The position numbers were made by a program, and so were the translations under genes. The notes under the pieces are model-generated. The model saw only the letters and a list, made by a program, of their open reading frames with translations, searched no databases and was not told the origin of the DNA. Below are positions 4,318 to 61,584 of a stretch of 64,000 nucleotides of DNA, in pieces. Numbering within the stretch: position 1 is the stretch's first letter; every line of letters begins with the position of its first letter. The DNA comes from Escherichia coli. GTDB lineage: Bacteria > Pseudomonadota > Gammaproteobacteria > Enterobacterales > Enterobacteriaceae. The stretch lies in assembly GCF_003334405.1 (NCBI RefSeq), contig NZ_QOWM01000003.1; one strand, written 5' to 3'.

Positions 4318-5466
4318 GTGTCTGACGAGAGCGACGACAAAACAGAAGCCCCCACACCTCACCGACTAGAAAAAGCGCGGGAAGAGGGGCAAATCCCGCG
4401 TTCCCGTGAACTGACCTCACTGCTGATTTTGCTGGTGGGCGTTAGTGTTATCTGGTTTGGCGGTGTGTCGCTGGCCCGTCGATTGTCGGGCATGCTCTCC
4501 GCTGGGCTGCATTTTGATCACAGTATTATCAATGACCCGAATCTGATCCTCGGGCAGATTATTCTGCTGATCAGAGAAGCCATGCTGGCGCTGCTGCCGC
4601 TGATTAGCGGCGTGGTGCTGGTGGCGCTCATTTCTCCGGTCATGCTGGGAGGGCTGGTATTTAGCGGCAAATCCTTGCAGCCGAAGTGTTCCAAACTCAA
4701 CCCGCTACCGGGCATTAAACGGATGTTCTCGGCTCAGACTGGCGCGGAGTTGCTTAAAGCAATTTTGAAAACCATCCTGGTTGGCAGCGTGACGGGGTTT
4801 TTTCTCTGGCATCACTGGCCGCAGATGATGCGCTTGATGGCCGAGTCTCCGATTACCGCCATGGGTAATGCGATGGATTTGGTAGGGCTATGCGCACTGC
4901 TGGTGGTGCTTGGTGTCATTCCAATGGTGGGATTTGACGTCTTTTTCCAAATATTCAGCCACCTGAAAAAGCTGCGTATGTCACGGCAGGATATTCGTGA
5001 TGAGTTCAAACAAAGCGAAGGTGACCCTCATGTTAAAGGGCGGATCCGTCAGATGCAGCGAGCTGCTGCACGGCGTCGGATGATGGCCGATGTGCCGAAA
5101 GCGGATGTCATTGTCAATAACCCGACCCACTATTCGGTAGCGTTGCAGTATGACGAAAACAAAATGAGCGCACCGAAAGTGGTCGCTAAAGGTGCAGGGC
5201 TGGTCGCGCTGCGCATTCGTGAAATTGGCGCTGAAAATAACGTCCCGACGCTTGAAGCGCCGCCGCTGGCGCGAGCGCTGTATCGACATGCGGAGATTGG
5301 TCAACAAATCCCGGGTCAACTGTACGCCGCGGTGGCGGAAGTGCTGGCCTGGGTCTGGCAACTGAAACGCTGGCGTCTGGCTGGTGGACAGCGCCCTGTA
5401 CAACCTACTCATCTTCCGGTGCCGGAAGCCCTGGATTTTATTAACGAGAAACCGACCCATGAGTAA
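4318..5466 (+). CDS. flhB: Flagellar biosynthesis protein FlhB (382 aa), apparent GTG start
   Basis: 382-aa ORF MSDESDDKTEAPTPHRLEKAREEGQIPRSRELTS with type III export-apparatus switch sequence; GTG at 4318. Confidence 0.95.
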   Translation: MSDESDDKTEAPTPHRLEKAREEGQIPRSRELTSLLILLVGVSVIWFGGVSLARRLSGMLSAGLHFDHSIINDPNLILGQIILLIREAMLALLPLISGVVLVALISPVMLGGLVFSGKSLQPKCSKLNPLPGIKRMFSAQTGAELLKAILKTILVGSVTGFFLWHHWPQMMRLMAESPITAMGNAMDLVGLCALLVVLGVIPMVGFDVFFQIFSHLKKLRMSRQDIRDEFKQSEGDPHVKGRIRQMQRAAARRRMMADVPKADVIVNNPTHYSVALQYDENKMSAPKVVAKGAGLVALRIREIGAENNVPTLEAPPLARALYRHAEIGQQIPGQLYAAVAEVLAWVWQLKRWRLAGGQRPVQPTHLPVPEALDFINEKPTHE

Positions 5467-7537
5467 TCTGGCCGCGATGCTGCGCCTGCCCGCAAACCTG
5501 AAATCGACACAATGGCAGATCCTTGCCGGACCGATTTTGATCCTGTTGATCTTGTCGATGATGGTGCTGCCACTGCCCGCATTCATACTCGACCTGTTGT
5601 TTACCTTCAATATTGCCTTGTCGATCATGGTGTTGCTGGTGGCGATGTTTACCCAGCGCACGCTTGAGTTTGCTGCGTTTCCGACCATTCTGTTGTTTAC
5701 CACGCTGTTGCGTCTGGCACTTAACGTGGCTTCAACCCGTATCATTTTAATGGAAGGGCATACCGGCGCGGCGGCGGCAGGGAAGGTGGTCGAAGCGTTC
5801 GGTCACTTCCTCGTTGGTGGCAATTTCGCTATCGGTATCGTGGTGTTTGTCATTCTCGTGATCATCAACTTTATGGTCATTACCAAAGGTGCCGGGCGTA
5901 TCGCAGAAGTGGGTGCGCGCTTTGTTCTCGATGGTATGCCGGGTAAGCAGATGGCGATTGACGCCGACCTTAACGCCGGATTGATTGGTGAAGATGAGGC
6001 GAAAAAACGCCGCTCCGAAGTGACTCAGGAAGCCGATTTTTACGGCTCAATGGACGGGGCAAGTAAGTTTGTTCGCGGCGATGCCATCGCCGGGATCCTC
6101 ATCATGGTCATTAACATTGTCGGCGGGTTGCTGGTCGGCGTGCTGCAACATGGCATGAGCATGGGACACGCGGCGGAAAGTTATACGCTATTGACCATTG
6201 GCGACGGTCTGGTGGCACAAATTCCGGCGCTGGTGATTTCTACCGCCGCGGGGGTCATCGTTACGCGTGTCAGCACCGATCAGGATGTTGGCGAGCAGAT
6301 GGTGAATCAGCTTTTCAGTAACCCAAGCGTTATGTTGTTAAGCGCCGCCGTGCTCGGTTTACTCGGCCTGGTGCCTGGAATGCCGAACCTGGTATTTTTG
6401 CTGTTCACTGCCGGATTGCTCGGGCTGGCCTGGTGGATACGCGGACGCGAACAAAAAGCGCCTGCCGAACCCAAACCGGTAAAAATGGCAGAGAATAATA
6501 CCGTTGTCGAAGCGACGTGGAACGATGTACAACTGGAAGATTCTCTGGGAATGGAAGTGGGTTATCGACTGATCCCGATGGTCGATTTCCAGCAGGATGG
6601 TGAGTTGTTGGGCCGTATACGCAGTATCCGCAAGAAATTTGCCCAGGAGATGGGATTTCTGCCGCCAGTGGTGCACATTCGCGACAATATGGATCTGCAA
6701 CCTGCCCGCTATCGCATTTTGATGAAAGGCGTGGAGATTGGCAGTGGTGATGCTTATCCGGGGCGCTGGCTGGCGATTAACCCTGGAACCGCTGCCGGGA
6801 CGTTACCTGGTGAGGCGACCGTCGATCCGGCATTTGGCCTGAATGCTATCTGGATTGAAAGTGCGCTAAAAGAACAGGCGCAGATTCAGGGGTACACAGT
6901 GGTTGAGGCCAGCACGGTGGTAGCAACGCATCTTAACCACCTCATTAGCCAGCATGCCGCAGAGCTGTTTGGTCGTCAGGAGGCGCAACAGCTGTTGGAT
7001 CGCGTCGCCCAGGAGATGCCAAAGCTGACGGAAGATCTCGTTCCTGGCGTCGTCACGCTCACCACACTGCATAAAGTGCTGCAAAATCTCCTCGATGAAA
7101 AAGTACCGATTCGCGATATGCGCACCATTCTCGAAACGCTGGCGGAACATGCGCCCATCCAAAGCGATCCACATGAATTAACCGCCGTCGTGCGCGTGGC
7201 GTTGGGACGGGCGATTACCCAGCAGTGGTTTCCTGGCAAAGATGAAGTCCATGTTATTGGCCTCGATACACCGCTGGAACGTTTGTTACTACAGGCGCTG
7301 CAGGGCGGGGGAGGACTGGAGCCAGGGCTGGCGGATCGTTTACTGGCGCAAACTCAGGAAGCGCTATCCCGTCAGGAGATGCTGGGTGCGCCGCCAGTAT
7401 TGTTGGTGAACCACGCGCTGCGACCATTATTGTCTCGCTTCCTGCGCCGCAGCTTGCCGCAGTTAGTGGTCCTGTCGAATCTGGAACTGTCTGATAACCG
7501 ACATATCCGCATGACGGCGACAATTGGCGGCAAATAA
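5459..7537 (+). CDS. flhA: Flagellar biosynthesis protein FlhA (692 aa)
   Basis: ORF 5384..7537; start placed at ATG 5459 (MSNLAAMLRLPANLKSTQWQILAGP) giving 692 aa; overlaps the flhB 3' end by 8 nt. Confidence 0.95.
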   Translation: MSNLAAMLRLPANLKSTQWQILAGPILILLILSMMVLPLPAFILDLLFTFNIALSIMVLLVAMFTQRTLEFAAFPTILLFTTLLRLALNVASTRIILMEGHTGAAAAGKVVEAFGHFLVGGNFAIGIVVFVILVIINFMVITKGAGRIAEVGARFVLDGMPGKQMAIDADLNAGLIGEDEAKKRRSEVTQEADFYGSMDGASKFVRGDAIAGILIMVINIVGGLLVGVLQHGMSMGHAAESYTLLTIGDGLVAQIPALVISTAAGVIVTRVSTDQDVGEQMVNQLFSNPSVMLLSAAVLGLLGLVPGMPNLVFLLFTAGLLGLAWWIRGREQKAPAEPKPVKMAENNTVVEATWNDVQLEDSLGMEVGYRLIPMVDFQQDGELLGRIRSIRKKFAQEMGFLPPVVHIRDNMDLQPARYRILMKGVEIGSGDAYPGRWLAINPGTAAGTLPGEATVDPAFGLNAIWIESALKEQAQIQGYTVVEASTVVATHLNHLISQHAAELFGRQEAQQLLDRVAQEMPKLTEDLVPGVVTLTTLHKVLQNLLDEKVPIRDMRTILETLAEHAPIQSDPHELTAVVRVALGRAITQQWFPGKDEVHVIGLDTPLERLLLQALQGGGGLEPGLADRLLAQTQEALSRQEMLGAPPVLLVNHALRPLLSRFLRRSLPQLVVLSNLELSDNRHIRMTATIGGK

Positions 7538-16095: not shown

Positions 16096-18243
<2,148 letters not shown>

Positions 18244-18295: not shown

Positions 18296-19114
18296 TCAGA
18301 AAAGAGAAGATTGCTGTGGAATAGCCGGAACTGCTCCGATCTCTGGAAGCGTTTTACGTAAGTCTTCCCACAGGGTATGTACCAGTTCCGGTGCCTGGGC
18401 AATGTCTGGCGTATGTAAAAAAAGATAAGGCGTAGTGGTCTGATGCCACTGCGCTAATTTTTGTAACCAGACCTGAAATAATTCCCGGTTTTGCGTCATA
18501 TCATCACTACCGATAAAACGGATCAGCGGATTTGTCGCCGTCAGTACAGCATGTACCGGAACTTTAGGTTTTTTTCGTTGAGCGTCGCGAATAGCTTCAC
18601 TGTGTGGACGTGCTGCATGAACCGGGCGGCTGTCTAAAATCACCCGATTAACGCCGCGCTGATGTAAACCGCGATTAAGCGTTTGTTCCTCTTCTCCTTT
18701 GGCGAAAAACTGTGGATGGCGGACTTCCACGCCATAATTAAATTCGCCAGGAAGAGAATCGAGAAAATGCCAAAGCGCAGGCAGCTCCCGTGGGCCGAAT
18801 GTGGCAGGCAGTTGCAGCCAGTATTGCCCAATGCGCGGAGCCAACGGTGACATGCGGGTCAAAAATTCAGTCACTAAATCATCGCAATGCCGTAATGCTG
18901 CCTGATGCGAAATGGTCGCCGGAAACTTAAAACAGAAGCGGAAGTCATCTGTGGTCTGCTCACGCCAGCGCAGGACAACCTCGGGTTTCGGCAGGGCGTA
19001 AAGCGTGGTGTTGCCCTCCACGCAGTTAAAGTGGCGGGCATACTCTTCAAGGCTGGTGATCCCCAACCGCACCCATTTAGGATGCGACCATTGCGGTAGA
19101 CCGATGTAAATCAT
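18296..19114 (-). CDS. yecE: DUF72-family protein YecE (272 aa)
   Basis: 272-aa [32 protein letters not shown]. Confidence 0.88.
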
Positions 19115-26309: not shown

Positions 26310-27095
26310 TTAGCTGGCCTGCTTTTTCATCATACTGAGAATAAATAACAGTGCCGCACATAGCACCACCGACGGACCCGCCGGCGTATCGTAAACCGCG
26401 GAAAAGGTTAAACCGCCAGTCACTGCCACCATCCCCACCAAAACAGCGACACCAGCCATCTGTTCCGGCGTGCGGGCAAAGCGACGCGCAGTAGCAGCAG
26501 GAATAATCAGCAACGAAGTAATAATCAACGCACCGACAAATTTCATCGCTACACCAATCGTCAATGCCGTCACCAGCATCAACAACAATTTCACTCGCTG
26601 TAATTTCACACCATCAACAAACGCCAGATCCGGGCTTATCGTCATTGACAGCAAATTGCGCCATTGCCAGAACAAAATAGCCACCACGATGACCACGCCA
26701 ATCGCAATAGAGATGAGATCTTCTGGCGTCACTGCCAGCAAATCACCGAACAGGTAAGCCATCAAATCAACACGAATATTAGACATCAGACTCACGACCA
26801 CCAGGCCCAGCGACAGGGCACTGTGCGCCATAATCCCTAATAACGTGTCGATCGCCAGCTGTGGACGCTTCTCCAGCCATACCAGACCGCCCGCCAGCAG
26901 CAGCGTAACGGCAATCACCGCATAGAATGGATTCACGTCCAGCAACAAACCAAACGCGACGCCAAGTAATGAGGCATGAGCCAGCGTATCACCGAAATAA
27001 GACATACGACGCCAGACTACAAACGAACCCAGCGGACCCGCGGCACAGGCGAGCATGATCCCGGCTAACCAACCGGGAAATAATAATTCAATCAT
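26310..27095 (-). CDS. znuB: Zinc ABC transporter permease ZnuB (261 aa)
   Basis: 261-aa polytopic membrane [43 protein letters not shown]. Confidence 0.95.
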
Positions 27096-41642: not shown

Positions 41643-44389
<2,747 letters not shown>

Positions 44390-47539: not shown

Positions 47540-48196
47540 ATGAAACAGCCTGCGCCCGTTTATCAGAGAATTGCGGGTCATCAATGGCGACATATCTGGC
47601 TTTCTGGCGATATACACGGTTGTCTTGAGCAGTTGCGCCGCAAATTATGGCATTGTCGTTTTGATCCGTGGCGAGATTTACTTATCTCAGTGGGAGACGT
47701 TATCGATCGTGGGCCGCAAAGTTTACGTTGTCTGCAGTTACTGGAACAACATTGGGTTTGTGCGGTAAGAGGCAATCATGAACAGATGGCGATGGATGCG
47801 CTGGCATCCCAGCAGATGTCTTTGTGGTTGATGAATGGCGGCGACTGGTTTATTGCGCTGGCAGATAATCAACAGAAACAAGCGAAAACGGCGCTGGAAA
47901 AATGTCAGCATTTGCCCTTTATTCTTGAAGTACACAGTCGCACCGGCAAGCATGTTATTGCTCATGCCGATTATCCAGATGATGTTTATGAATGGCAAAA
48001 GGACGTTGATTTGCATCAGGTCTTGTGGAGCCGCTCGCGATTAGGTGAACGCCAAAAAGGGCAGGGAATTACAGGTGCTGATCATTTCTGGTTTGGTCAT
48101 ACACCGTTGCGACATCGCGTGGATATTGGCAACCTGCATTATATTGATACCGGTGCTGTCTTTGGGGGCGAACTGACTCTTGTGCAATTGCAATAA
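47540..48196 (+). CDS. pphA: Serine/threonine protein phosphatase 1 PphA (PrpA) (218 aa)
   Basis: ORF 47537..48196 (TTG) with ATG at 47540; metallophosphatase motifs GDIHGC, GDVIDRG, GNHE. Confidence 0.9.
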   Translation: MKQPAPVYQRIAGHQWRHIWLSGDIHGCLEQLRRKLWHCRFDPWRDLLISVGDVIDRGPQSLRCLQLLEQHWVCAVRGNHEQMAMDALASQQMSLWLMNGGDWFIALADNQQKQAKTALEKCQHLPFILEVHSRTGKHVIAHADYPDDVYEWQKDVDLHQVLWSRSRLGERQKGQGITGADHFWFGHTPLRHRVDIGNLHYIDTGAVFGGELTLVQLQ

Positions 48197-48388
48197 TTAA
48201 AAATCACCGTACTCCTGTGCAGGTCGCCAGAAACCATCTATAAAATCCTCAATCGGAAAACAACCGCCCTGGCGGATCCGTTGATCGCTCATAGAATAAA
48301 GACACTGCTGTTCCGTGTTGTAGACATCCACAACAATATCTTCACAACCGCCATCCAGGTAGCAAACAAAAAGTACCAGCGCGAACAT
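48197..48388 (-). CDS. yebW: Small protein YebW (63 aa)
   Basis: ORF 48197..48472; start placed at internal ATG 48388 (MFALVLFVCYLDGGCEDIVVDVYNTEQQ) to give 63 aa. Confidence 0.65.
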   Translation of the reverse strand: MFALVLFVCYLDGGCEDIVVDVYNTEQQCLYSMSDQRIRQGGCFPIEDFIDGFWRPAQEYGDF

Positions 48389-48492
48389 TTCATCCCCGAA
48401 GTGTGGTGCCGTACCGTTAAGTTTAGGAGAGATTTTACAACGGGGGAATAACCAGGACAAATAACCCGCCATGCCGACGGGTTCTTTTTGGA

Positions 48493-48729
48493 TCAGGCAA
48501 GACGCATAATCCAGGCATCAGATTGTTGATCGTAACGGGTACGGTAAAGGACAGAGTGTTCGCCATTTAGCAGGGCAGGGATACTGGTTTCAGCATCCCA
48601 GGCATCCAGTTGCATACATAAATCGGGGTCAGATTTACAAGGAATGGTTAACGTTCGATCACCTGGCGATTCACCGTGTAATTCGCCGTCGTCGATTTCA
48701 AAAGCGCCTATGCGCACACTGGTTTTCAT
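48493..48729 (-). CDS. yebV: Small protein YebV (78 aa)
   Basis: ORF 48493..48744; start placed at ATG 48729 (MKTSVRIGAFEIDDGELHGESPGD). Confidence 0.8.
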   Translation of the reverse strand: MKTSVRIGAFEIDDGELHGESPGDRTLTIPCKSDPDLCMQLDAWDAETSIPALLNGEHSVLYRTRYDQQSDAWIMRLA

Positions 48730-48846
48730 CTTCGTGCTCTCCATTTAGCTGCCGATTGTGGTACGACCAGTCCGATCGCACCATTTTTCAGCCTAGTTGA
48801 GGCAGCCGAATGTGCCAGTCAAAAAGTGCGCTTTTTTTGTGCGCTG

Positions 48847-50292
48847 TCAGGCGTTACCGGTAAAAAGTTTCCCATCGCGCACCAGTTCACGCGGATAGCT
48901 GTTTTTCAATCGCGAACCAATCCGTTTGGCTAAACCAATCGGTTGATGCTGGAAAGTAACCAATACATCATCCGCCACTGGCGCGGCTTGCGGGTAAACA
49001 TCGCGCCCGCGATACCACTCCTCCGCTTCCTGCGGTGTCAGCTCGAATGCATTCATATTATCGGGTGAGGCAAGAGCAATAACCGCTTCATGCTGCCAGC
49101 GATAACCTTTGTTGTGCGTCTCGGCAAGTTTAATCCCCAACCGAGAAAATCGGACTTTACCGATCAGGGCTTCAATGCCCACCGGGAACAACCACAGTTC
49201 TTTGTCACGCTGCCAGAGGCGCAGGTTTTCATCCCAGTTTAAGCCAACACCTGTAGCCGCCTGACGAATTTGTCCAGCTTCGCGATCTTTCACCGGGCTG
49301 AACGGAAAATTACCGACTTTGTATTTGGGGGCGGGTAAGGCGGGAATCGCCTGAGTTTTACGCAGACGAGCAACGAAGAAGCCTTCGCAGTCGTAAATTT
49401 GTGGGAAAACATGCAAAAAGCCTTCTTCGGTCAGCGCTTTGTTTGCACCAGGGAAGAGATCGCCAAGTGGTAAAAACTCTACTGCGTCGGGGTAAGTCTC
49501 TTTCAGCCACAGGCAAACGGCTTCGTTTTCTTCCTGGTTTAAGGTACAGGTCGAGTAAACCAGCGTACCACCAGGACGTAATGCATGAAAGGCGCTGTCG
49601 ATAAGCTCCCGTTGTGTAGCTGCGATTTCCTGATTGCTTTCTGGTGACCAGTTTTTTAGCGCATCGGGATCTTTACGCACCACGCCTTCGCCAGAGCAGG
49701 GAGCGTCCAGCAAAATGGCATCGAACATTTCTGGCACTGCCGCACCAAACACGCGGCCATCAAAATGTGTGAGCGCAACATTACTGATACCACAGCGGCT
49801 GATATTGGCATGTAACACTTTTACCCGACTGGCGGAAAACTCATTGGCAAGGATTGCCCCTTCGTTATTCATCCGCGCGGAAATTTGCGTCGTTTTGGAG
49901 CCAGGCGCGGCAGCGACATCCATCACCCGCTGTGGTGCATTACCGTCAGCAAACAAGGCGGCAACAGGCAACATTGAACTGGCTTCCTGAATATAAAACA
50001 GGCCACTTAAATGCTCGGCGGTACTACCCAATGGCAATGCATCTTCATTGTCGCGTTCAATCCAGAAACCTTCTTCACACCACGGAATTGGCGTAAGCGT
50101 CCAGCCATAAGGAGCGGTTAATTGCAGGAAATCAGCAACGGAGATTTTCAGCGTATTAACGCGAATGCTGCGGCGCAACGGGCGCTGACAGGCGGCAAGA
50201 AAATCATCAAATGAGAGCGTCGAAGGCATCGCTTCGCGCATTTGTGTCAGAAAGGCGTCCGGGAAATAAACGGTGTGTTGGGCCACGAGCAT
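48847..50292 (-). CDS. rsmF: 16S rRNA m5C1407 methyltransferase RsmF (YebU) (about 479-481 aa; start uncertain)
   Basis: ORF with NOL1/NOP2/Sun-family SAM methyltransferase core ([27 protein letters not shown]). Confidence 0.9.
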
Positions 50293-50365
50293 GTACCACT
50301 GGCAAAAAAACAGGCGCGCAGTTTAGCATAAACGCTCCGGCGCAGGCACGCCGGAGCAGTGGGCA

Positions 50366-52999
50366 TTATTTGGGAAGCGCAGTTCCCCATTCACGCCACT
50401 CTTTCGGTTCACTTTCCTGCAACAGGAAGTGTTTGCCTTCCTGGGCTTTCGGTGCCAGTGGCGTACCCGGAGGCGTGGCGAAGGCGATGCCGCCACGGAT
50501 AAACTGGTTAAAGGTGCCGGTTTTCACTACGCCGCCCGTCAGACCAAAGTCCAGACTGTAACCCGATGCCAACCAGAAGACGGAATTGTTACGCACCAGG
50601 TGTTGATAGCGTTTACTGATGCGCATCGCAATCATCACGCGATCTGACAATGTCCCCAGCGTCATTCCTGTAACCGTACCGACTTCCAGACCACGGAACA
50701 GCACAGGCGTACCGATGCCTAACGAACCGGCTTCCGGCGCTTCAACAATAATGCTTAAGCCATCCAGGTAACGCGAATCAGTAATGGTGGCCTCTTGTAA
50801 TTCAAAGTCGCGGCGAGGATTGCCCCGGCCTGGTTCGACGTTGATATACGGCTGGAGGATAGTATCAAGATGCTCAACGCCAGCTGCCGAAATTTGCGGT
50901 GTGACCACTGAGAAGCGCGTACCACCGCGAGCAAAGGTCTGGACATATTCCGGGTAAAGTACCGCCTTTGCCTGTACTTCATTGCGTGCGGTAATCAGAT
51001 CCAGCGTCTGGATTTGCCCGATATCAATACCGAGATAGCGAATTGGCATCCCGACCGCCAGTTTTCCGGCATCGAAAGCGTGAAGCGTAATCTGCCCGCC
51101 AACCGCACGGGCCGCTGTTTCGGAAGCATACAGAATACGCTTATCGCCTTTACGCTGACTGGCGCTGGCACCGCTGAGGTTGTCGAAGCTAATGGCTCCC
51201 TTTAATGCTCTGGAGAGCGGGGATGCCTGTACGGTCAGACCACTACCATTCAGCTGAACTTTCGCCCCGCCTTCTGCCCAGAACACGCTATTGCTGGTCA
51301 GAAGGTTGCGATACTCCGGCTTAATATGCAGATCGATATCAAACGCGTTAGCTCGCGGACGCACGGTAATCACTTCACCAACTTCAAATTTACGGTACAG
51401 CACTACCGATCCTGCCTGCACATCCGGCAGCGTCTCTGCACTCAAACTCACGGTTGTGGTGGGTAAATCGCTAAGGCTGTTCTCCAGCGCTTTTTCCAAA
51501 TTGGCATACAGTGGATAGCTGGCTTTCATCTCACCTTTATCGCCCGGCAGAATACGTATCCCGCCATTGATCCATTCTGAGGCGCTGGCACCGAGAAACT
51601 CAACGCCATCCAGCCCCACCTTCACATCGACACGGCTGTTGACGACAAATTTGCTATCGCCTTTTACCAGTTCGCGATGCTGAGGCTCGATGGCGACGGT
51701 AAAGGTGACGCCTTTGCTGGTGAGTTTACGATCGATAACCTGGCCTACCTGCACGCCGTGAAGAATGAGCGGCTGACCCGCATCAATACCGTAACTTTCC
51801 GGCGCGGTCAGGGTCAGCGTCAGAACATCAGGTTCATGCAGCAGTGCTTTTTCGCCTGGCACAACAACGAACTCTTTGCGTGGCTCGCCATCGCCGGGCA
51901 CCAGCTCGAAGGTTTTGCCGGTCAGCAGGGCGCTGAGATTAGCATCGCTAAGGGATAATTTCGGGTTGCGTAATTCGATGCGGGTATTTTCACGAAGCAG
52001 GGTAACGACGCTGGGATCAACGGTCATTTCCCCTGTGACTTTACCACCAGGATTTAAATCCAGTTTAGTCAGCTGTCCGACTTCCAGCCCCTGATACATT
52101 AACGGCGTCGAGTCGGCGGTTAATCCGGCCCCACTCGGCAGTTCCAGTTTTATTATTACGCCACGCTGGCTGTGGGCCAGATCTTCATACAGACCAAAGG
52201 TATCTTCCGCCTCGGCAGGTTTCGACTCTTCTGGTGAATCGAAGGCAATCGCACCGTTAACCAGTGCCGCCAGGCTTTCCAGTTTCACCTTCGCGCCACT
52301 GATACTGACGTTGGCATCAACGCCGGAAACGTTCCAGAAACGGCTACCTTTTTTCACCAGATCGGTAAAACGCCGCTCGATCAGGACATCAATCACCACG
52401 CCTTGCTTGTTGGGATTGATGGCATAGTCGTAGACTTTTCCCACCGGGATCTTGCGGAAATAGACCAATGAACCGCTGTTCAGCGAACCGAGATCGGGGG
52501 CTTGCAGGTGGATCATCAGATCGCCATTGTCCAGCCGATATTTCGGTTGGGTATCGAGTGCGACAAAGTGATCCTGCTCTTTACCTTTACCCGGCATCAT
52601 GCCGATATAGTTCCCACCGACGAGGGCGTCCAGCCCGGAGACACCTGCCAACGATGCTTTTGGCGTCACCAGCCAGAACTGAGTCTCTTCGCGCAGCGCA
52701 TCTTTCATATCGGACTTGATGCTGACCTTGACTTCAATCTTACGAAGATCGTCGCTGAGGCTGATATCCTGCACTGTTCCGACTTCAACGCCCTGATAAC
52801 GAACAGGCGTACGGCCTGGAACAATACCATCCGCCGACATAAAGTCGATGGTGACGGTATTACCCCGGTCCTGATAACTGTCCCAAATCAGCCAACTGGC
52901 AATCATTAGCGCGATGAACGGCAGCAGCCAGAAAGGTGAGATACGGCGTTTATTTTTAATCTGCGCTTCAGTCGTCGAAGCGGGCGTTTCCTGACTCAT
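50366..52999 (-). CDS. letB: Lipophilic envelope-spanning tunnel protein LetB (YebT), multi-MCE-domain protein (877 aa)
   Basis: ORF 50366..53041; start placed at ATG 52999 ([38 protein letters not shown]); N-terminal TM helix then repeated MCE domains. Confidence 0.92.
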
Positions 53000-54251
53000 G
53001 TGCATCCCAAAGTAAGCGGCTGTCCAGCCATTCCACAGCAAGAATAGTCAAAATTACCGCTGCGCCGAAATAAAACGCAGCCGGTCCCATAGTAAAAGCG
53101 AGGATCTGATCGCGATTAATCAGCGACATGGTTAAAGATATGACAAACAGGTCGAGCATCGACCAGCGACCAATCCAGGTCACCATCCGCAGTAACAGAA
53201 TGCGTGTGCGTAAACCTTGCTGGCATTTAAAATGAATGCTCAACAGTAAAGTGAACATGACGATCACTTTAGTAAACGGTACCAGAATACTGGCGATAAA
53301 CACGATTCCTGCAACCGCAATGTTGCTACTTGCCAGCGACATAATTCCGGAAAGAATTGTATCTTCCTGCCGTCCTCCGTTCAGATAAATGATAGAAATA
53401 GGCAACAGGTTGGCAGGTAACAATAAAACGATTGACGCTAACAGCGCCGCCCAGCATTTTTGCAGACTATGACGGCGACGCAGGCGTAGCGGGATATGGC
53501 AACGCGGGCAGCGACCACGCTGATCTGGATAGCCGGTAAAATGGCACCCAAGACAGACACGAAGTTTCTCGTCCCTACGCGTAGCGGGGCGCTGCGGATA
53601 AAATCGCTCCCACAGTTCTTCGACATTAAGATGTGACAACGTCACCGTCGTTAAAATCACCAACGCCACAAAAGAGAACAAGCCGACACCAGCCTGGATA
53701 TGGGCATAATCCTGTACCTTTATAGAAGCAACGCCAATGCCGACCAGGTAGATATCGAGCATTACCCACTCTTTAAGTCGCTCAAGCATCAGCAGTACCG
53801 GACGTAAATTCATTCCCAGTCGGTTACCAAACCATAAATAAGCTATGGAGGTCACCAGAATGAGCGGGGCACCAATAACGCAGAAAAAGACCATCGACCC
53901 CGTTATCGCATCGCCCTGTTTGGTCATTTGCCAGATGCCTTGCATAACGTTGGCGTCAATACGAATGCCTAACAGCCAGATATGCAACAGCGGTTCGCCC
54001 CAGGCAAACGGCATAAGCAACAGCATGGTGAAGGCCATTGCCGCCAGGCGCGTTAGCGACCAGTCGCGCCCGTCACGAATTTTTGCCTGACAGCGCGGAC
54101 AATAGGCACTTTGATGAGAATTTATCTCGGGCAGGCTAAACAGCATGTCACATTGCGGGCAACGTTGGTAATCACCACGCGGCAGTTCCTCGCCGATTGC
54201 CCTCACTGTTATCTTTTTTGTCGGCGTAATTTGTGGTGTGTTAAGAGCCAT
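52968..54251 (-). CDS. letA: PqiA-family inner membrane protein LetA (YebS) (427 aa)
   Basis: 427-aa ORF with Cys-pair zinc-ribbon-like motifs ([13 protein letters not shown]; CLGCHF..CPRCH) and multiple TM segments; 3' end overlaps the letB start by 32 nt. Confidence 0.92.
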
Positions 54252-54380
54252 GACGTGCCAAATGTAATAAGAATTAACATTAATCTTAACCCATGATGGG
54301 AATGATCTTGAGCATTAACGCATTTAATGCTTATTTTAATAGGCTGGCAGATCCAGGTAAGACAACCAAGTGATTATATA

Positions 54381-54878
54381 ATGAACAAAACAGAATTTTA
54401 CGCGGATTTAAATCGCGACTTTAACGCGCTGATGGCGGGAGAAACCAGTTTTCTGGCAACGCTTGCGAACACCAGTGCGTTGTTATATGAGCGTCTCACT
54501 GACATAAACTGGGCAGGTTTTTATTTGCTTGAGGACGATACACTGGTACTCGGACCATTTCAGGGCAAAATTGCCTGTGTCCGGATACCCGTCGGGCGCG
54601 GCGTGTGCGGCACTGCGGTTGCCCGCAATCAAGTGCAGCGTATCGAGGATGTTCATGTGTTTGACGGGCATATTGCCTGTGATGCGGCGAGTAATTCTGA
54701 AATTGTTCTGCCGCTGGTGGTGAAAAATCAGATTATTGGTGTTCTCGACATCGATAGTACCGTCTTCGGTCGCTTTACAGACGAGGACGAGCAAGGCTTA
54801 CGTCAGCTTGTGGCACAGCTTGAAAAAGTGCTTGCAACGACGGATTACAAAAAATTCTTTGCGAGCGTCGCAGGATAA
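54381..54878 (+). CDS. msrC: Free methionine-(R)-sulfoxide reductase MsrC (YebR), GAF domain (165 aa)
   Basis: ORF 54327..54878; start placed at ATG 54381 (MNKTEFYADLNRDFNALMAGETSFLATLANTSALL). Confidence 0.88.
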   Translation: MNKTEFYADLNRDFNALMAGETSFLATLANTSALLYERLTDINWAGFYLLEDDTLVLGPFQGKIACVRIPVGRGVCGTAVARNQVQRIEDVHVFDGHIACDAASNSEIVLPLVVKNQIIGVLDIDSTVFGRFTDEDEQGLRQLVAQLEKVLATTDYKKFFASVAG

Positions 54879-54974
54879 TCAACGGATAACGTAGCATTTA
54901 CTGATAGCGTCATTATAATGACGCCTGTTCATGCCTGCGCTTGTTGGCTACGTCCGTTGTAATCAGGAAATTTC

Positions 54975-55673
54975 ATGGAAAATCAACCTAAGTTGAATAG
55001 CAGTAAAGAAGTAATCGCGTTTCTGGCCGAACGTTTTCCCCACTGTTTCAGTGCGGAAGGTGAAGCGCGTCCGCTGAAAATCGGTATTTTTCAGGATTTG
55101 GTCGATCGTGTTGCTGGGGAAATGAACCTGAGCAAAACGCAATTGCGATCCGCTTTACGTCTCTACACTTCGAGCTGGCGTTATCTTTACGGTGTTAAAC
55201 CCGGCGCAACGCGTGTCGATCTTGACGGCAACCCATGCGGTGAGCTGGACGAGCAACATGTAGAGCATGCTCGCAAGCAGCTTGAAGAAGCGAAAGCGCG
55301 TGTTCAGGCACAGCGTGCTGAACAGCAAGCGAAAAAACGCGAAGCTGCCGCAACTGCTGGTGAGAAAGAAGACGCACCGCGCCGCGAACGCAAGCCACGT
55401 CCGACTACGCCACGCCGCAAAGAAGGCGCTGAACGTAAACCTCGTGCGCAAAAGCCGGTAGAGAAAGCGCCAAAAACAGTAAAAGCACCTCGCGAAGAAC
55501 AGCACACCCCGGTTTCTGACATTTCAGCTCTGACTGTCGGACAAGCCCTGAAGGTGAAAGCGGGTCAAAACGCGATGGATGCCACCGTATTAGAAATCAC
55601 CAAAGACGGCGTCCGCGTCCAGCTGAATTCGGGTATGTCTTTGATTGTGCGCGCAGAACACCTGGTGTTCTGA
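54975..55673 (+). CDS. proQ: RNA chaperone ProQ (232 aa)
   Basis: 232-aa [45 protein letters not shown] with Lys/Arg-rich linker. Confidence 0.95.
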
Positions 55674-55692
55674 AACGGAGGCCGGGCCAGGC

Positions 55693-57741
55693 ATGAACAT
55701 GTTTTTTAGGCTTACCGCGTTAGCTGGCCTGCTTGCAATAGCAGGCCAGACCTTCGCTGTAGAAGATATCACGCGTGCTGATCAAATTCCGGTATTAAAG
55801 GAAGAGACGCAGCATGCGACGGTAAGTGAGCGCGTAACGTCGCGCTTCACCCGTTCTCATTATCGCCAGTTCGACCTCGATCAGGCATTTTCGGCCAAAA
55901 TCTTTGACCGCTACCTGAATCTGCTCGATTACAGCCACAACGTGCTGCTGGCAAGCGATGTTGAACAGTTCGCGAAAAAGAAAACCGAGTTAGGCGATGA
56001 ACTGCGTTCAGGCAAACTCGACGTTTTCTACGATCTCTACAATCTGGCGCAAAAGCGCCGTTTTGAGCGTTACCAGTACGCTTTGTCGGTACTGGAAAAG
56101 CCGATGGATTTCACCGGCAACGACACTTATAACCTTGACCGCAGCAAAGCGCCCTGGCCGAAAAACGAGGCTGAGTTGAACGCGCTGTGGGACAGTAAAG
56201 TCAAATTCGACGAGTTAAGCCTGAAGCTGACAGGAAAAACGGATAAAGAAATTCGTGAAACCCTGACTCGCCGCTACAAATTTGCCATTCGTCGTCTGGC
56301 GCAAACCAACAGCGAAGATGTTTTCTCGCTGGCAATGACGGCGTTTGCGCGTGAAATCGACCCGCATACCAACTATCTTTCCCCGCGTAATACCGAACAG
56401 TTCAACACTGAAATGAGTTTGTCGCTGGAAGGTATTGGCGCAGTGCTGCAAATGGATGATGACTACACCGTTATCAATTCGATGGTGGCAGGTGGTCCGG
56501 CAGCGAAGAGTAAAGCTATCAGCGTTGGTGACAAAATTGTCGGTGTTGGTCAAACAGGCAAGCCGATGGTTGACGTGATTGGCTGGCGTCTTGATGATGT
56601 GGTTGCCTTAATTAAAGGGCCGAAGGGCAGTAAAGTTCGTCTGGAAATTTTACCTGCTGGTAAAGGGACCAAGACCCGTACTGTAACGTTGACCCGTGAA
56701 CGTATTCGTCTCGAAGACCGCGCGGTTAAAATGTCGGTGAAGACCGTCGGTAAAGAGAAAGTCGGCGTGCTGGATATTCCGGGCTTCTATGTGGGTTTGA
56801 CAGACGATGTCAAAGTGCAACTGCAGAAACTGGAAAAACAGAATGTCAGCAGCGTCATCATCGACCTGCGTAGCAATGGCGGTGGGGCGTTAACTGAAGC
56901 CGTATCGCTCTCCGGTCTGTTTATTCCTGCGGGTCCCATTGTTCAGGTCCGCGATAACAACGGCAAGGTTCGTGAAGATAGCGATACCGACGGACAGGTT
57001 TTCTATAAAGGCCCGCTGGTGGTGCTGGTTGACCGCTTCAGTGCTTCGGCTTCAGAAATCTTTGCCGCGGCAATGCAGGATTACGGTCGTGCGCTGGTTG
57101 TGGGTGAACCGACGTTTGGTAAAGGCACCGTTCAGCAATACCGTTCATTGAACCGTATTTACGATCAGATGTTACGTCCTGAATGGCCAGCGCTGGGTTC
57201 TGTGCAGTACACGATCCAGAAATTCTATCGCGTTAACGGCGGCAGTACGCAACGTAAAGGCGTAACGCCAGACATCATCATGCCGACGGGTAATGAAGAA
57301 ACGGAAACGGGTGAGAAATTCGAAGATAACGCGCTGCCGTGGGATAGCATTGATGCCGCGACTTATGTGAAATCAGGAGATTTAACGGCCTTTGAACCGG
57401 AGCTGCTGAAGGAACATAATGCGCGTATCGCGAAAGATCCTGAGTTCCAGAACATCATGAAGGATATCGCGCGCTTCAACGCTATGAAGGACAAGCGCAA
57501 TATCGTTTCTCTGAATTACGCTGTGCGTGAGAAAGAGAATAATGAAGATGATGCGACGCGTCTGGCGCGTTTGAACGAACGCTTTAAACGCGAAGGTAAA
57601 CCGGAGTTGAAGAAACTGGATGATCTACCGAAAGATTACCAGGAGCCGGATCCTTATCTGGATGAGACGGTGAATATCGCACTCGATCTGGCGAAGCTTG
57701 AAAAAGCCAGACCCGCGGAACAACCCGCTCCCGTCAAGTAA
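55693..57741 (+). CDS. prc: Tail-specific protease Prc (Tsp) (682 aa)
   Basis: ORF 55645..57741; start placed at ATG 55693 (MNMFFRLTALAGLLAIAGQTFA signal peptide); PDZ and S41 peptidase regions. Confidence 0.95.
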   Translation: MNMFFRLTALAGLLAIAGQTFAVEDITRADQIPVLKEETQHATVSERVTSRFTRSHYRQFDLDQAFSAKIFDRYLNLLDYSHNVLLASDVEQFAKKKTELGDELRSGKLDVFYDLYNLAQKRRFERYQYALSVLEKPMDFTGNDTYNLDRSKAPWPKNEAELNALWDSKVKFDELSLKLTGKTDKEIRETLTRRYKFAIRRLAQTNSEDVFSLAMTAFAREIDPHTNYLSPRNTEQFNTEMSLSLEGIGAVLQMDDDYTVINSMVAGGPAAKSKAISVGDKIVGVGQTGKPMVDVIGWRLDDVVALIKGPKGSKVRLEILPAGKGTKTRTVTLTRERIRLEDRAVKMSVKTVGKEKVGVLDIPGFYVGLTDDVKVQLQKLEKQNVSSVIIDLRSNGGGALTEAVSLSGLFIPAGPIVQVRDNNGKVREDSDTDGQVFYKGPLVVLVDRFSASASEIFAAAMQDYGRALVVGEPTFGKGTVQQYRSLNRIYDQMLRPEWPALGSVQYTIQKFYRVNGGSTQRKGVTPDIIMPTGNEETETGEKFEDNALPWDSIDAATYVKSGDLTAFEPELLKEHNARIAKDPEFQNIMKDIARFNAMKDKRNIVSLNYAVREKENNEDDATRLARLNERFKREGKPELKKLDDLPKDYQEPDPYLDETVNIALDLAKLEKARPAEQPAPVK

Positions 57742-57932
57742 TATCAATCAGGCACAAGAAATTGTGCCTGATTTTTTAACAGCGACAAGATGCCGTAAAT
57801 CAGATGCTACAAAATGTAAAGTTGTGTCTTTCTGGTGACTTACGCACTATCCAGACTTGAAAATAGTCGCGTAACCCATACGATGTGGGTATCGCATATT
57901 GCGTTTTGTTAAACTGAGGTAAAAAGAAAATT

Positions 57933-58814
57933 ATGATGCGAATCGCGCTCTTCCTGCTAACGAACCTGGCCGTAATGGTCGTTTTCGGGCTGGTACTGAG
58001 CCTGACAGGGATACAGTCGAGCAGCGTTCAGGGGCTGATGATCATGGCCTTGCTGTTCGGTTTTGGTGGTTCCTTCGTTTCGCTTCTGATGTCCAAATGG
58101 ATGGCATTACGATCTGTTGGCGGGGAAGTGATCGAGCAACCGCGTAACGAAAGGGAACGTTGGCTGGTCAATACTGTAGCAACCCAGGCTCGTCAGGCGG
58201 GGATCGCTATGCCGCAAGTGGCTATCTACCATGCGCCGGACATCAACGCTTTTGCAACCGGTGCGCGCCGTGATGCCTCTCTGGTTGCTGTCAGCACCGG
58301 TTTGCTGCAGAACATGAGCCCGGATGAAGCCGAGGCGGTAATTGCTCACGAAATCAGCCACATCGCCAATGGTGATATGGTCACCATGACGCTGATTCAG
58401 GGCGTGGTGAACACCTTCGTTATCTTTATTTCCCGTATTCTGGCGCAGCTTGCCGCGGGTTTTATGGGCGGAAATCGTGATGAAGGTGAAGAGAGCAACG
58501 GCAACCCGCTGATCTACTTTGCGGTTGCAACGGTTCTGGAACTGGTGTTTGGTATTCTGGCGAGCATTATCACCATGTGGTTCTCGCGTCATCGTGAATT
58601 CCATGCTGATGCCGGTTCGGCAAAACTGGTTGGTCGCGAGAAAATGATTGCCGCGCTGCAGCGCCTGAAAACCAGCTATGAACCGCAAGAAGCAACCAGC
58701 ATGATGGCTCTCTGCATTAACGGTAAGTCGAAATCGCTCAGTGAGTTGTTCATGACCCACCCGCCGCTGGATAAACGAATTGAAGCTCTGCGTACGGGTG
58801 AATACCTGAAGTAA
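57933..58814 (+). CDS. htpX: Membrane zinc metalloprotease HtpX (293 aa)
   Basis: 293-aa [29 protein letters not shown] with HEISH zinc-binding motif ([10 protein letters not shown]). Confidence 0.95.
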
Positions 58815-58830
58815 TATGAAGTAAATACTA

Positions 58831-58862
58831 AAAAGCGCGTCCTGATCGACGCGCTTTTTTTA
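58831..58862. terminator. Bidirectional terminator between convergent htpX and yebQ
   Basis: aaaaagcgcgtcctgatcgacgcgcttttttt. Confidence 0.7.
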
Positions 58863-60233
58863 TGCCCTGGATCGTGGCTGAGTGATACGTAAACCACTGA
58901 CACAGGCAGCAATCACTGCCAGAATAGCCGCAGCCATCAGCGAGACGTGTGTACCATTATCTCCAAACTGATTTAGCATCAGCGCCACCAGCGCCGCGCC
59001 GCTACTCTGACCCAGTAGACGAGCCGTTCCTAACATGCCACTGGCTCCACCGCTACGTTCGCGAGGCGCGGAGGTAATAATGGTGTGGTTATTGGGTGAC
59101 TGGAATAAGCCAAATCCAGCACCACATAAGATCATCGGCCAGATAATATTGATATCCGCAGGTGACGCGGGCAGCAGAACCAGGGAAAAAAGCCCCGCAG
59201 CCATGATGAACAACCCTAAAGCCCCCAGCAATCCTGCATGTACGCGTTCAATCAAATAGCCTGCCAGCGGAGCCATCACCATCGTTGCTAACGGCCACGG
59301 TGTCAGAAGTAAACCTGTTTCGACTTCACTACGCCCGAGCACGGTTTGCAGGTAAAAGGGCAGGGAAACCATTGCCAGCATTTGTGCGCAGAAAGAGCAA
59401 ACAGATGTGCAAATAGAAAGTGAAAACAGCGGGATACGCAGTAAATCCACCGGTAGCAGCGGTACGGGAAGAGAAAGCTGGCGGCGAATAAAGAAAATAC
59501 CAACAACAACCATTACCACCAGTTCCGCAGCAATTAACGTCAGCGATTGCCCCTGAGCGAAACCACTCAACGCAGTGATAAGCAGGCCGAAGGTTAACGC
59601 GTTCATCACGGCGCTGGGCAGGTCGAAACGGGGTTTACTGGCGCGAGAACCATTGGGTGGCAGAAAACGCATCGCCAGAAGCAGGGCGATAATACCTAAC
59701 GGTACGTTGATTAAAAATAACCATTTCCAGGATGCGATGGAGAGGATTGCTGCAGCAATTGTCGGCCCGGCAGCAGAAGAGACGGCAACAATAAACGAGT
59801 TTATGCCCATCCCTCTACCCAGAAAACGTTGTGGATAGATCAGGCGGATAAGTGCGGTATTAACGCTCATCAACGCTGCACCGCCGAAACCTTGTATGAC
59901 ACGCGCAAGGGTGAGCATTTGCAGCGAATCAGAAAGGGCGCAGAACAGTGAAGACAACAGAAAAACGACCAGACCGCATTTATAAATACGTCGATAGCCA
60001 AACATATCGCCCAGAAACGAAAACGAGAGCAGGGAGATGACAATGGCGATTTGATAGGCGTTCACTACCCAGATGGAACTGGCTGGCGTGGCATGAAGGT
60101 CCGTGGCGATTGTTGGCAGGGCGACGTTGGCGATTGCGCCGTCAAGGACGGCCATCGAAATACCAATCACAATGGTTAATATCGCACCGTATCGCTGGGG
60201 CAATGGCAGGCCGTCGGCCTGAACTTTTGGCAT
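58860..60233 (-). CDS. yebQ: MFS transporter YebQ (457 aa)
   Basis: ORF 58860..60344; start placed at ATG 60233 (MPKVQADGLPLPQRYGAILTIVIGISMAVLDGAIANVALPTIA); 12-14 TM drug/H+ antiporter-like. Confidence 0.88.
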   Translation of the reverse strand: MPKVQADGLPLPQRYGAILTIVIGISMAVLDGAIANVALPTIATDLHATPASSIWVVNAYQIAIVISLLSFSFLGDMFGYRRIYKCGLVVFLLSSLFCALSDSLQMLTLARVIQGFGGAALMSVNTALIRLIYPQRFLGRGMGINSFIVAVSSAAGPTIAAAILSIASWKWLFLINVPLGIIALLLAMRFLPPNGSRASKPRFDLPSAVMNALTFGLLITALSGFAQGQSLTLIAAELVVMVVVGIFFIRRQLSLPVPLLPVDLLRIPLFSLSICTSVCSFCAQMLAMVSLPFYLQTVLGRSEVETGLLLTPWPLATMVMAPLAGYLIERVHAGLLGALGLFIMAAGLFSLVLLPASPADINIIWPMILCGAGFGLFQSPNNHTIITSAPRERSGGASGMLGTARLLGQSSGAALVALMLNQFGDNGTHVSLMAAAILAVIAACVSGLRITQPRSRA

Positions 60234-60409
60234 AGGAATTTTATATCTTTGGTGAATAATCAACAGGGGTATGATTCTAGCACTGATATTCACGGTGGAT
60301 GTCGCAGAATTGTAACTAACCGGCAAAAGATGGATTGCGACCACCCTGGTGCGAAATTATAATAAAAAACAGTTCTGATTTTTATAAAACACTCGCAATG
60401 AGGTGATAA

Positions 60410-61201: not shown

Positions 61202-61209
61202 TGAGAGTA

Positions 61210-61247
61210 AGAACCTGTCGGAATATCAAACAGACAGGTTCTTTATT
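61210..61247. terminator. Terminator between convergent kdgR and yobH
   Basis: gaacctgtcggaatatcaaacagacaggttc followed by tttattt. Confidence 0.6.
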
Positions 61248-61344
61248 TAGCATGAGAAAAATAAAGTTGAAGGTGGCGTTATATTAAACGCGCTTGCTAT
61301 AAGAGTATTTTACTCAGGAGTGAGAATCTGGTTATTTATTGCCC

Positions 61345-61584
61345 TTAACCATTATCGACCACGATATTGCTTTTGCGTAACAGCGGGCAATCTGTTATCC
61401 CCAAAAAACCACTTTTAGTGTGCAAGTATTGTACCGTGCTGGTGCCTCTGGCAGTCAGATAGGTACATTGCAAACCTAATCCTGCGGCATTCTCTTTGCT
61501 TCCAATCAAAACGCCATATCCGCTGAGTAATAATCCTATCCATACCAGTGCTATCAGCATAACTGTGCGAATGATGAATCGCAT
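61345..61584 (-). CDS. yobH: Small membrane/exported protein YobH (79 aa)
   Basis: 79-aa ORF MRFIIRTVMLIALVWIGLLLSGYGVLIGS. Confidence 0.8.
   Translation of the reverse strand: MRFIIRTVMLIALVWIGLLLSGYGVLIGSKENAAGLGLQCTYLTARGTSTVQYLHTKSGFLGITDCPLLRKSNIVVDNG

Follow-up and report, generated by a model that had tools for sequence, protein, structure and literature searches.

The 32-nucleotide overlap of letA and letB in Escherichia coli and the translation of letB

How does a ribosome come to start a gene whose initiation codon lies inside the gene before it? The question is raised by letA (yebS) and letB (yebT), neighbors that share 32 nucleotides within the 64,000-nucleotide stretch of DNA analyzed here (the window). 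A preliminary description of this stretch took the overlap to imply translational coupling of the pair. A long overlap is not, of itself, proof of translational coupling, and we describe below why, in the native letAB operon with its conserved overlap, LetB is probably made mainly by de novo initiation at a site embedded in letA.

Anatomy and conservation of the overlap

The source of the window is E. coli, and both genes are read, and were translated, from the minus strand. letA (52968..54251, minus) encodes a 427-aa inner-membrane protein of the PqiA family, identified by its open reading frame, translation and RefSeq annotation; letB (50366..52999, minus) encodes an 877-aa MCE tunnel protein, identified by translation and RefSeq. 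Pfam assignments for the family were run on homologues: LetA homologues carry PF04403, and the genes downstream of letA in distant homologues specify proteins of 876-881 aa each, with PF02470 MlaD/MCE domains. LetB is distinguished from PqiB by its length, with six to eight MCE domains and ~877 aa in E. coli, according to a 2026 paper on the structure of LetA (PMC13017536). The locus has the make-up of a letAB operon, in which the gene for a long MCE protein comes after that for a PqiA-family protein, and its gene order matches that of Enterobacteriaceae yebST, with msrC-proQ-prc upstream and rsmF downstream. Positions 48001-64000 of the window are identical to the K-12 record NZ_CP032667.1 (locus L002), and the RefSeq K-12 boundaries, yebT 50366..52999 and yebS 52968..54251, agree with ours. 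Translation and RefSeq thus bear out the gene identities and coordinates of the preliminary description.

The overlap (52968..52999, minus; coordinates recomputed, both frames translated) runs from the letB start codon, ATG (52997..52999), to the letA stop codon, TGA (52968..52970, read on the minus strand). As 32 leaves a remainder of 2 on division by 3, the genes are read in different frames. For LetA, the shared bases encode two bases of His418, residues 419-427 and the stop; for LetB, residues 1-10 and codon 11 as far as its second base. Cryo-EM density is absent for LetA 419-427, and LetB 1-13 is described as absent and was omitted from the model (PMC13017536); the overlap encodes only disordered tails.

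Among complete E. coli genomes, 5425 of 5426 carry the junction region at 95% identity or more. Across 80 Enterobacteriaceae species loci, the letB ATG is kept in every one, and the letA frame is open through the overlap to its TGA in 76. These 76 have the 32-nt overlap. In the other four (L014, L029, L032 and L062) the TGA is mutated, the stop lies 12 nt further downstream, LetA is 431 aa long, and the overlap is 44 nt. The four resemble a published class of overlaps that arise by a shifted stop codon, in which loss of a start or stop codon brings into use another that lies within the neighboring gene (PMC3887535). The letAB overlap is real, conserved and probably dual-coding, and not an accident of chance or of annotation.

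Our first homologue search returned close relatives only, of at least 77% identity; distant ones came from a search of representatives. The spacing TGG-(GAT/AAA)-NNNN-ATG, in which LetA has Trp-Asp or Trp-Lys, is kept in three of these, L084, L086 and L089 (LetA identity 50%, 44% and 37%), in which the LetA tails are 3-18 codons and the overlaps 56, 38 and 11 nt. Further relatives have overlaps of 8, 29 (or 17) or 53 (or 20) nt, or none. L090 (32% LetA identity) has a PqiA-like gene without a co-oriented downstream MCE gene, and was excluded from the junction set. In these sequences, overlap length follows the length of the LetA tail. The E. coli pqiABC operon offers a comparison, as it pairs the same families, a PqiA-family membrane protein and then an MCE protein. 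PqiA, like LetA, ends soon after a Trp-Asp (...RLSWD), but pqiA and pqiB are separated by a 4-nt gap, with the pqiB ATG past the pqiA stop; pqiB and pqiC have a canonical 4-nt overlap. A PqiA-like pair in L091 has a 7-nt gap.

The overlap itself is already published and an ordinary finding. The locus is that of the published E. coli letAB (yebST), and the observation is identical: a 32 bp overlap is stated in PMC13017536, and a letA-letB distance of -32 appears in the genome-wide tabulation of Huber et al. 2023 (PMC10666635). Present in the annotation, in a published table and in a primary paper, it has little value as a discovery. The available passages and supplement entries of these two papers contain no discussion of the position of the start relative to the Trp-Asp codons, of the variable overlap among orthologues, or of the conserved island described below.

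An embedded initiation site and its rivals

The explanation that we favor begins with LetA. The letB AUG lies 4-7 nt past LetA's conserved Trp-Asp codons, where the structured part of LetA would end. These codons, UGG GAU (Trp415-Asp416), would double as a weak Shine-Dalgarno-like site, GGGA (53005..53008, minus), 5 nt upstream of the AUG. The letA frame continues for ten codons of disordered tail, of a length that varies with lineage, and the overlap is therefore as long as the tail. Ribosomes would start LetB mainly by ordinary de novo initiation at this site within letA, and LetB synthesis would be independent of termination-reinitiation. The site would be stronger than letA's own, which would fit the six LetB present per LetA. 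Ribosomes finishing letA would pass the site, and may help to hold a moderately structured region open.

The GGGA is invariant in 78 sequences. Its predicted duplex with the anti-Shine-Dalgarno sequence is -4.0 kcal/mol at a workable spacing, compared with -3.0 at the wrong spacing for alternative starts, and -1.5 for letA. Published INRI-seq data, from a cell-free purified system, record a peak of ribosomes at the start annotated for yebT (NC_000913.3 position 1917510) in five of five replicates. The template RNAs span only -30..+153 and the letB RNA has no letA start, so letA is not translatable from its own start on that template. In Table S2 of that work, the yebT peaks are 29.8-69.1 CPM versus 6.3-7.9 CPM for yebS, although the letB template is ~9-fold scarcer in the pool (58.7 CPM, versus 541 for letA); the resulting ~60-fold difference per template, from shortened RNAs in a cell-free system, may not hold on the full mRNA. 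The complex comprises six LetB to one LetA, resolved as separate chains. By predicted opening energy, the letB site (10.2 kcal/mol) is less accessible than the median annotated start (8.2), and more accessible than 85% of positions inside letAB. Direct evidence covers the anatomy and conservation of the junction, the letB start codon, in vitro initiation on an RNA that lacks the letA start, and the 6:1 complex. We infer that de novo initiation is the dominant route in vivo and that passing ribosomes assist it.

More surrounds the letB start than this site. Synonymous codon entropy reveals a near-invariant island of ~85 nt, from -50 to +35 of the letB ATG (52965..53050, minus), that is the most nucleotide-conserved stretch of the 3.9-kb operon. 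Entropy averages ~1.2 over the operon and falls to 0.319 over letA codons 401-417, which are not dual-coding, and to 0.113 over codons 418-427. The lowest 17-codon windows elsewhere are 0.881 (letA 1-400) and 0.820 (letB 12-866), both above the island, and not one of 100,000 permutations was as low. A weak 4-nt Shine-Dalgarno site is insufficient by itself to account for ~85 near-invariant nucleotides. The island could be a distinct cis-regulatory RNA element, adjusting letB translation or the fate of the mRNA, with the overlap just happening to fall inside it; candidate forms include a standby site, a processing site, and a target of a small RNA or RNA-binding protein. We hold this to be unlikely, though three observations favor it. 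Synonymous variation is suppressed from -50 to +35 beyond anywhere else in the 3.9 kb. Protein constraint is a poor explanation, because both of the encoded peptides are without cryo-EM density (PMC13017536) and are unconserved in distant orthologues. And the 17-mer GAATGGCTGGACAGCCG is identical in L084 despite 50% LetA identity.

Against such an element, a search of positions 50000-55000 with the Rfam covariance models gave no match up to E = 1, and a literature search found no link between yebT and a small RNA. The coding strand at the junction has no sigma-70 promoter- or terminator-like site beyond chance, and the island shows no covariation. A ribosome-binding site lying within coding sequence may be all that the constraint reflects, and part of the conservation within the overlap arises because the +1 offset makes almost every base non-synonymous in one frame or the other. 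We also considered a sigma-28 promoter, since one study by genomic SELEX reports an RpoF site within yebS, and rejected it: the site is ~700 nt upstream of the junction (with an assumed offset between genome versions), and the best motif has 10 of 16 matches. A more specific proposal, that the island is a dedicated cis-acting RNA element, be it a structure, a standby site or a place where a small RNA or protein binds, that sets the high LetB:LetA synthesis ratio for the 6:1 complex, the overlap being a side-effect of packing, strikes us as improbable, and we offer it tentatively. The island is nevertheless a cheap target for learning how one operon sets unequal subunit ratios. On the native operon, mutations in LetA 418-427 also alter the LetB N-terminus, and synonymous changes in letA codons 401-417 also alter the sequence around the letB ribosome-binding site.

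Passing ribosomes might do more than assist de novo initiation. The letB site could be closed in free mRNA, and opened only when a ribosome melts it at the last codons of letA. A review deems unfolding of this kind the likelier mode of coupling for large overlaps, and the predicted structure is suggestive: in the consensus fold, -17..-11 is paired with +2..+9, and the Shine-Dalgarno site and the AU of the AUG lie in the loop. The opening energy of the letB site exceeds the annotated-start median, as noted, and the downstream genes of other overlapping pairs are also fairly closed (flhE 12.5, yecE 11.7 and cmoB 9.8 kcal/mol). But the minimum-free-energy fold is no stabler than that of shuffled sequence (z = -1.05), the covariation term is -0.23 kcal/mol, one of the 29 pairs in the consensus fold changes on both sides, and many species carry changes that break the outer helix of the E. 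coli fold. The consensus hairpins at the letB start show no variation among the species compared, which leaves covariation neutral as to whether they form, and the opening energy of the site is intermediate. The INRI-seq RNA includes the proposed hairpin, moreover, and initiates well, and we regard strict dependence on melting as doubtful.

Obligatory termination-reinitiation, in which a ribosome moves back ~30 nt from the letA UGA to the letB AUG and LetB depends on LetA synthesis, we judge highly unlikely. It has points in its favor. The two genes are co-oriented and overlapping, and their products form one complex; the letB site is more structured than that of a typical first gene. Coupling is known for coat-lysis pairs at -38 nt in phage fr and at -50 nt in MS2, with scanning to the nearest start reported, and coupling at -32 is therefore mechanistically possible. 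These phage pairs are like letAB in having a long, out-of-frame overlap with the start tens of nucleotides before the stop. They differ in that the downstream gene reportedly needs upstream translation, a need that the letAB stoichiometry and INRI-seq argue against. Reinitiation yields products in a ratio of at most 1:1, because there is one reinitiation per termination, and pairs coupled in this way are expected to give roughly equimolar amounts; letAB forms a complex of six LetB to one LetA. Reinitiation also entails dependence of the downstream gene and little de novo initiation, whereas in the published cell-free INRI-seq letB initiates without a letA start.

Distance, too, argues against it. 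In native E. coli pairs, reinitiation drops by 40-80% at +14 nt and to almost zero at +38 nt, figures that pertain to positive spacings only. Overlaps beyond -8 are rare; in one survey, any distance outside -8..+6 was at least 10 times rarer than -4. letAB (-32) lies outside this stop-start range, whereas flhBA (-8), flhAE (-1), and cmoAB, yecDE and znuCB (-4) lie within it. Canonical short overlaps (ATGA, TAATG and ATGNNTAA) resemble letAB in that the genes are co-oriented in one operon and stop and start share bases; the products of such pairs are often subunits of a single complex. Unlike them, letAB has its stop 30 nt downstream of its start, a Shine-Dalgarno-like site of its own, and independent initiation in vitro. 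Among orthologues, overlap length ranges from 0 to 56 nt, a latitude that sits poorly with obligatory reinitiation. Finally, according to PMC13017536, the operon was refactored because letA and letB overlap, and functional deep mutational scanning was built on the non-overlapping version, which thus served functional selection. That operon was expressed from a plasmid, and the overlap could still have a quantitative role at native levels. The stoichiometry, initiation without the letA start and the refactored operon favor independent initiation over the coupling first proposed.

The letB start codon

De novo initiation at 52999 presupposes that letB begins there. In prokaryotic annotations, a long overlap often comes from a mispredicted start codon, and were the letB start mis-annotated the overlap would be an artefact. 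The rarity of long same-strand overlaps lends this some color, as do in-frame alternatives upstream, an ATG at 53005 (53003..53005, minus; MHMSQ...), 6 nt before the annotated ATG, and a TTG at 53041. Yet the chance of it is very slight. The ATG at 52999 is invariant. That at 53005 is not a conserved start, since GAT>GAC or GCA>ACA changes destroy it in 19 of the 78 species, and three species have lost the TTG. Substitutions upstream of 52999 are all non-synonymous in the letB frame. Downstream in that frame the first ATG, GTG or TTG is that of Met32, midway along the membrane anchor. The INRI-seq peak is at the annotated start; from the method, a ribosome stalled at 53005 should peak outside the 12-18-nt window assigned to that start. 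The start given in the preliminary description, 52999, thus stands, on its invariance in 80 of 80 species and on the INRI-seq peak in all five replicates.

The in vivo Ribo-RET columns are 0 for both yebS and yebT, probably a reflection of low expression. yebT, yebS and flhA are all absent from the TetRP supplement, a Salmonella N-terminomics supplement has no matches, and the TRAINSPOTTER table contains flhA and lacks letB.

Several other readings of the junction were tried and rejected. A longer LetB from the TTG at 53041 founders on stops just upstream, on loss of the TTG in three species, and on upstream changes that are non-synonymous there. A mini-ORF in the third frame (ATG at -32, and a TGA that overlaps the letB ATG as ATGA) resembled a coupling device; it was ruled out by a C>T change at -23 that gives an in-frame TAG in 19 of 78 species, by its want of a usable Shine-Dalgarno site, and by the INRI-seq template, which begins at -30 and initiates anyway. 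An antisense ORF over the junction, ~37 codons free of stops, lacks an ATG in the reference translation and has nothing else in its favor. That the overlap might be a programmed frameshift site giving a LetA-LetB fusion is scarcely credible: the two frames do overlap by +1, and a 747-aa LetA-like protein (P0233) is in the database, but the 32-nt overlap, CAUGAGUCAGGAAACGCCCGCUUCGACGACUGA, has neither an X XXY YYZ slippery heptamer nor a prfB-like CUU UGA C motif, and the two proteins are resolved as distinct chains, with six LetB per LetA.

Other overlaps in the window

Five shorter overlaps had been described, and all were recomputed and match RefSeq. On the plus strand, flhB and flhA overlap by 8 nt (ATGAGTAA; 5459..5466), and flhA and flhE by 1 nt (TAATG; 7537..7537). 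On the minus strand, cmoA/cmoB (17064..17067), yecD/yecE (19111..19114) and znuC/znuB (27092..27095) overlap by 4 nt each (ATGA). The statement that all of the overlaps are expected for operonic genes holds for those of 1, 4 and 8 nt; it does not for letAB, where -32 is unusual. The flhA start had also been assigned correctly: its annotated ATG is supported by a published N-terminal peptide, MSNLAAMLR, by Ribo-RET and by INRI-seq. One further overlap, missed in the preliminary description, is that of the convergent genes ptrB and exoX, which share 4 nt at 43727-43730.

The overlap and the start codons

The genes letA (yebS; 54251..52968) and letB (yebT; ATG at 52999, running to 50366) lie on the minus strand and share 32 nt out of frame (52968..52999). 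Open reading frames, translation and RefSeq boundaries all bear out this overlap, as reported in the preliminary description, and the shorter overlaps listed with it are exact: 8 nt in flhB/flhA, 1 nt in flhA/flhE, and 4 nt each in cmoA/cmoB, yecD/yecE and znuC/znuB. By our count from the gene-pair list, 6 of the 44 co-oriented neighbour pairs within the window overlap. The convergent genes ptrB (+) and exoX (-), left out of that description, also have 4 nt in common (43727-43730); pphA and yebW abut with zero gap (48196/48197), and ruvC and yebB are 1 nt apart. The letA/letB overlap is an already known feature, given as 32 bp in the LetA structure paper (PMC13017536) and entered as a distance of -32 in a 2023 genome-wide E. 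coli gene-distance table (PMC10666635). A 601-nt stretch at the junction is matched at ≥95% identity in 5425 of 5426 complete E. coli genomes, and window positions 48001-64000 are identical to a K-12 MG1655 record.

The letB and flhA starts, originally chosen from expected protein length, both prove sound. A survey with one genome for each species yielded 80 Enterobacteriaceae loci (LetA identity 76-97%), and every one has an ATG at the position of 52999. Of these loci, 76 have a 32-nt overlap and four (loci L014, L029, L032 and L062) a 44-nt overlap; in the four, letA has lost its TGA by mutation and LetA is four codons longer, in agreement with 431-aa LetA variants. The change is T>G at the first base, giving GGA (position 4782-4796 in each locus); the carriers are three Citrobacter species and Superficieibacter electus, and their letB start is unchanged. 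Upstream, an in-frame ATG (53005, 6 nt from the letB ATG) is missing in 19 of 78 sequences and an in-frame TTG (53041) in three, and substitutions beyond 52999 are synonymous in the letA frame and non-synonymous in that of letB. Downstream, a translation scan found no ATG, GTG or TTG before Met32, itself within the membrane anchor. INRI-seq, which profiles ribosomes arrested by retapamulin in a purified translation system, shows a peak at the yebT start as annotated in 5/5 replicates (29.8-69.1 CPM; PMC9825163 Table S2). For flhA, a 2026 N-terminomics table contains the peptide MSNLAAMLR, residues 1-9 of 692, and the annotated ATG is also backed by Ribo-RET and INRI-seq (PMC13245402). Its neighbour flhB (4318) has an annotated GTG start in a rather closed predicted initiation region (opening energy 11.0 kcal/mol, rank 56 of 63). 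One locus, L065 (CACSKA010000003.1), is labelled Chryseobacterium sp. 18061 (Bacteroidota), yet is a typical Enterobacteriaceae letAB locus with 79% LetA identity and an identical junction, probably through contamination or mislabelling of the assembly.

Initiation of letB and a conserved island at its start

The letB AUG is preceded, 5 nt upstream, by GGGA, formed by LetA Trp-Asp codons; predicted anti-Shine-Dalgarno pairing is -4.0 kcal/mol at a workable spacing, against -3.0 at the wrong spacing for the alternative starts. Four results speak for a largely independent initiation of letB. INRI-seq templates cover no more of each gene than -30..+153, and the letB peak therefore formed in the absence of the letA start. 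Its mean height, 49 CPM, is ∼6.7-fold that of the letA peak (7.3 CPM; calculated from published values), although its template made up a ∼9-fold smaller share of the pool (58.7 versus 541 CPM). The complex contains six LetB per LetA, a ratio beyond supply by one reinitiation per termination. In native E. coli pairs, reinitiation drops by 40-80% at +14 nt and to nearly zero at +38 nt. Finally, a functional selection used a refactored, non-overlapping letAB operon as its backbone (PMC13017536). The start of letA itself (54232-54251 region) has near-zero Shine-Dalgarno pairing (predicted -1.5 kcal/mol), and its INRI-seq peak is low (6-8 CPM) though its template is abundant (PMC9825163 Table S2), which fits LetA as the minority subunit. 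Ribo-RET gives no in vivo start-site signal for either gene (value 0 for both; PMC9825163 table).

The overlap had been taken to imply translational coupling, and its length to be expected of operonic genes. The start codons on which that reading stood were right, but coupling is not demonstrated and, on the evidence for independent initiation, is probably not obligatory. In its favour, phage coat-lysis pairs show coupling at -38 and -50 nt, and the letB site, with a predicted opening energy of 10.2 kcal/mol, is intermediate: the median is 8.2 for typical starts and 12.8 for internal positions. The length is in fact atypical: gene distances outside -8..+6 are all at least tenfold rarer than -4. 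Among the short-overlap pairs, downstream genes (flhE 7537, yecE 19114, cmoB 17067, znuB 27095) have predicted initiation regions that are more closed (8.9-12.5 kcal/mol) than those of the first genes cmoA, znuC and yecD (5.6-7.1 kcal/mol), the pattern expected under reliance on coupling, in a small sample. A published genomic SELEX screen reported a sigma-28 (RpoF) RNA polymerase site inside yebS, upstream of yebT (U00096.2 position 1914836, roughly window 53700). We found no convincing sigma-28 motif within letA; if the site is real, a transcript of letB alone could contribute to the excess of LetB.

The letB start lies in a near-invariant island of ∼85 nt (52965-53050, minus strand); among 75 Enterobacteriaceae species, no other stretch of the letAB operon is as conserved at the nucleotide level. 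Synonymous codon entropy, which averages about 1.2 over both genes, falls to 0.113 in letA codons 418-427 and is already 0.319 in codons 401-417, which precede the overlap and code in a single frame. No 17-codon window elsewhere in the operon is under 0.82, and 0/100,000 permutations were as low; usual variation returns from letB codon 13. The island takes in ∼50 nt coding for LetA alone, and its 17-mer GAATGGCTGGACAGCCG is identical in the distant locus L084. The overlap begins at His418, the last residue of the LetA C-terminal transmembrane domain, and codes only for parts missing from the cryo-EM model, which has no density for LetA 419-427 and in which LetB 1-13 is described as absent (PMC13017536). 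Because the peptides encoded by both frames at the island are missing from that model and are not conserved in more distant relatives, protein constraint explains it poorly, and the constraint looks to be RNA-level. Its simplest reading is an extended ribosome-binding site that lies within coding sequence. A separate regulatory element is possible; around the letB start there is no Rfam match, the junction has no promoter-like site on the coding strand, and its RNA fold has no stability beyond that of shuffled sequence (z = -1.05). Small consensus hairpins occur at -30..-19, at -17..-11 paired with +2..+9, and at +18..+34, the last including the letA stop; they never vary, so covariation speaks neither for nor against them.

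Overlap length among relatives

Distant LetA relatives were found by representative search and their contigs fetched. In L084, L086 and L089 (LetA identity 50%, 44% and 37%) the distance of the letB ATG from the conserved LetA motif ...RL(L/I)W(D/K) is unchanged: TGG-GAT/AAA, four bases and ATG. Two of these retain proQ-prc upstream, and one of the two also has rsmF downstream. The LetA tail past the motif has 18, 12 and 3 codons in the three, and this accounts for overlaps of 56, 38 and 11 nt. Overlaps elsewhere are 8 nt (L087, L092), 29 or 17 nt (L094) and 53 or 20 nt (L093); L088 has none. In contrast to letA/letB, the E. coli paralogues pqiA/pqiB are separated by a 4-nt gap, and the PqiA-like pair of L091 by 7 nt. 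Overlap is therefore common in the gene family, but outside the Enterobacteriaceae its length is not conserved. One LetA-like protein from the representative search (P0233, 747 aa) is almost double the normal length, and is possibly a natural fusion with another domain.

Differences from K-12

Compared with K-12, torZ (13502-15931) carries two premature stops, W266* (TAG, 14297-14299) and W655* (TGA, 15464-15466), and two missense changes; the window is thus a close relative of K-12 and not MG1655. The W655* variant was found in no complete E. coli genome. The 61-mer containing W266* is identical in up to 45, and the annotation of the one examined gives torZ as a pseudogene interrupted by an internal stop. 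Positions 1-50000 differ from the K-12 record NZ_CP032667.1 at 11 sites, 10 of them coding. Only two of the 10 are synonymous; the other eight change the protein (two nonsense and six missense: flhB F124C, cutC Y132H, torY V29A, torZ T311I, torZ H605R and yebF D37G), a non-synonymous share that is unusually high for such close relatives.
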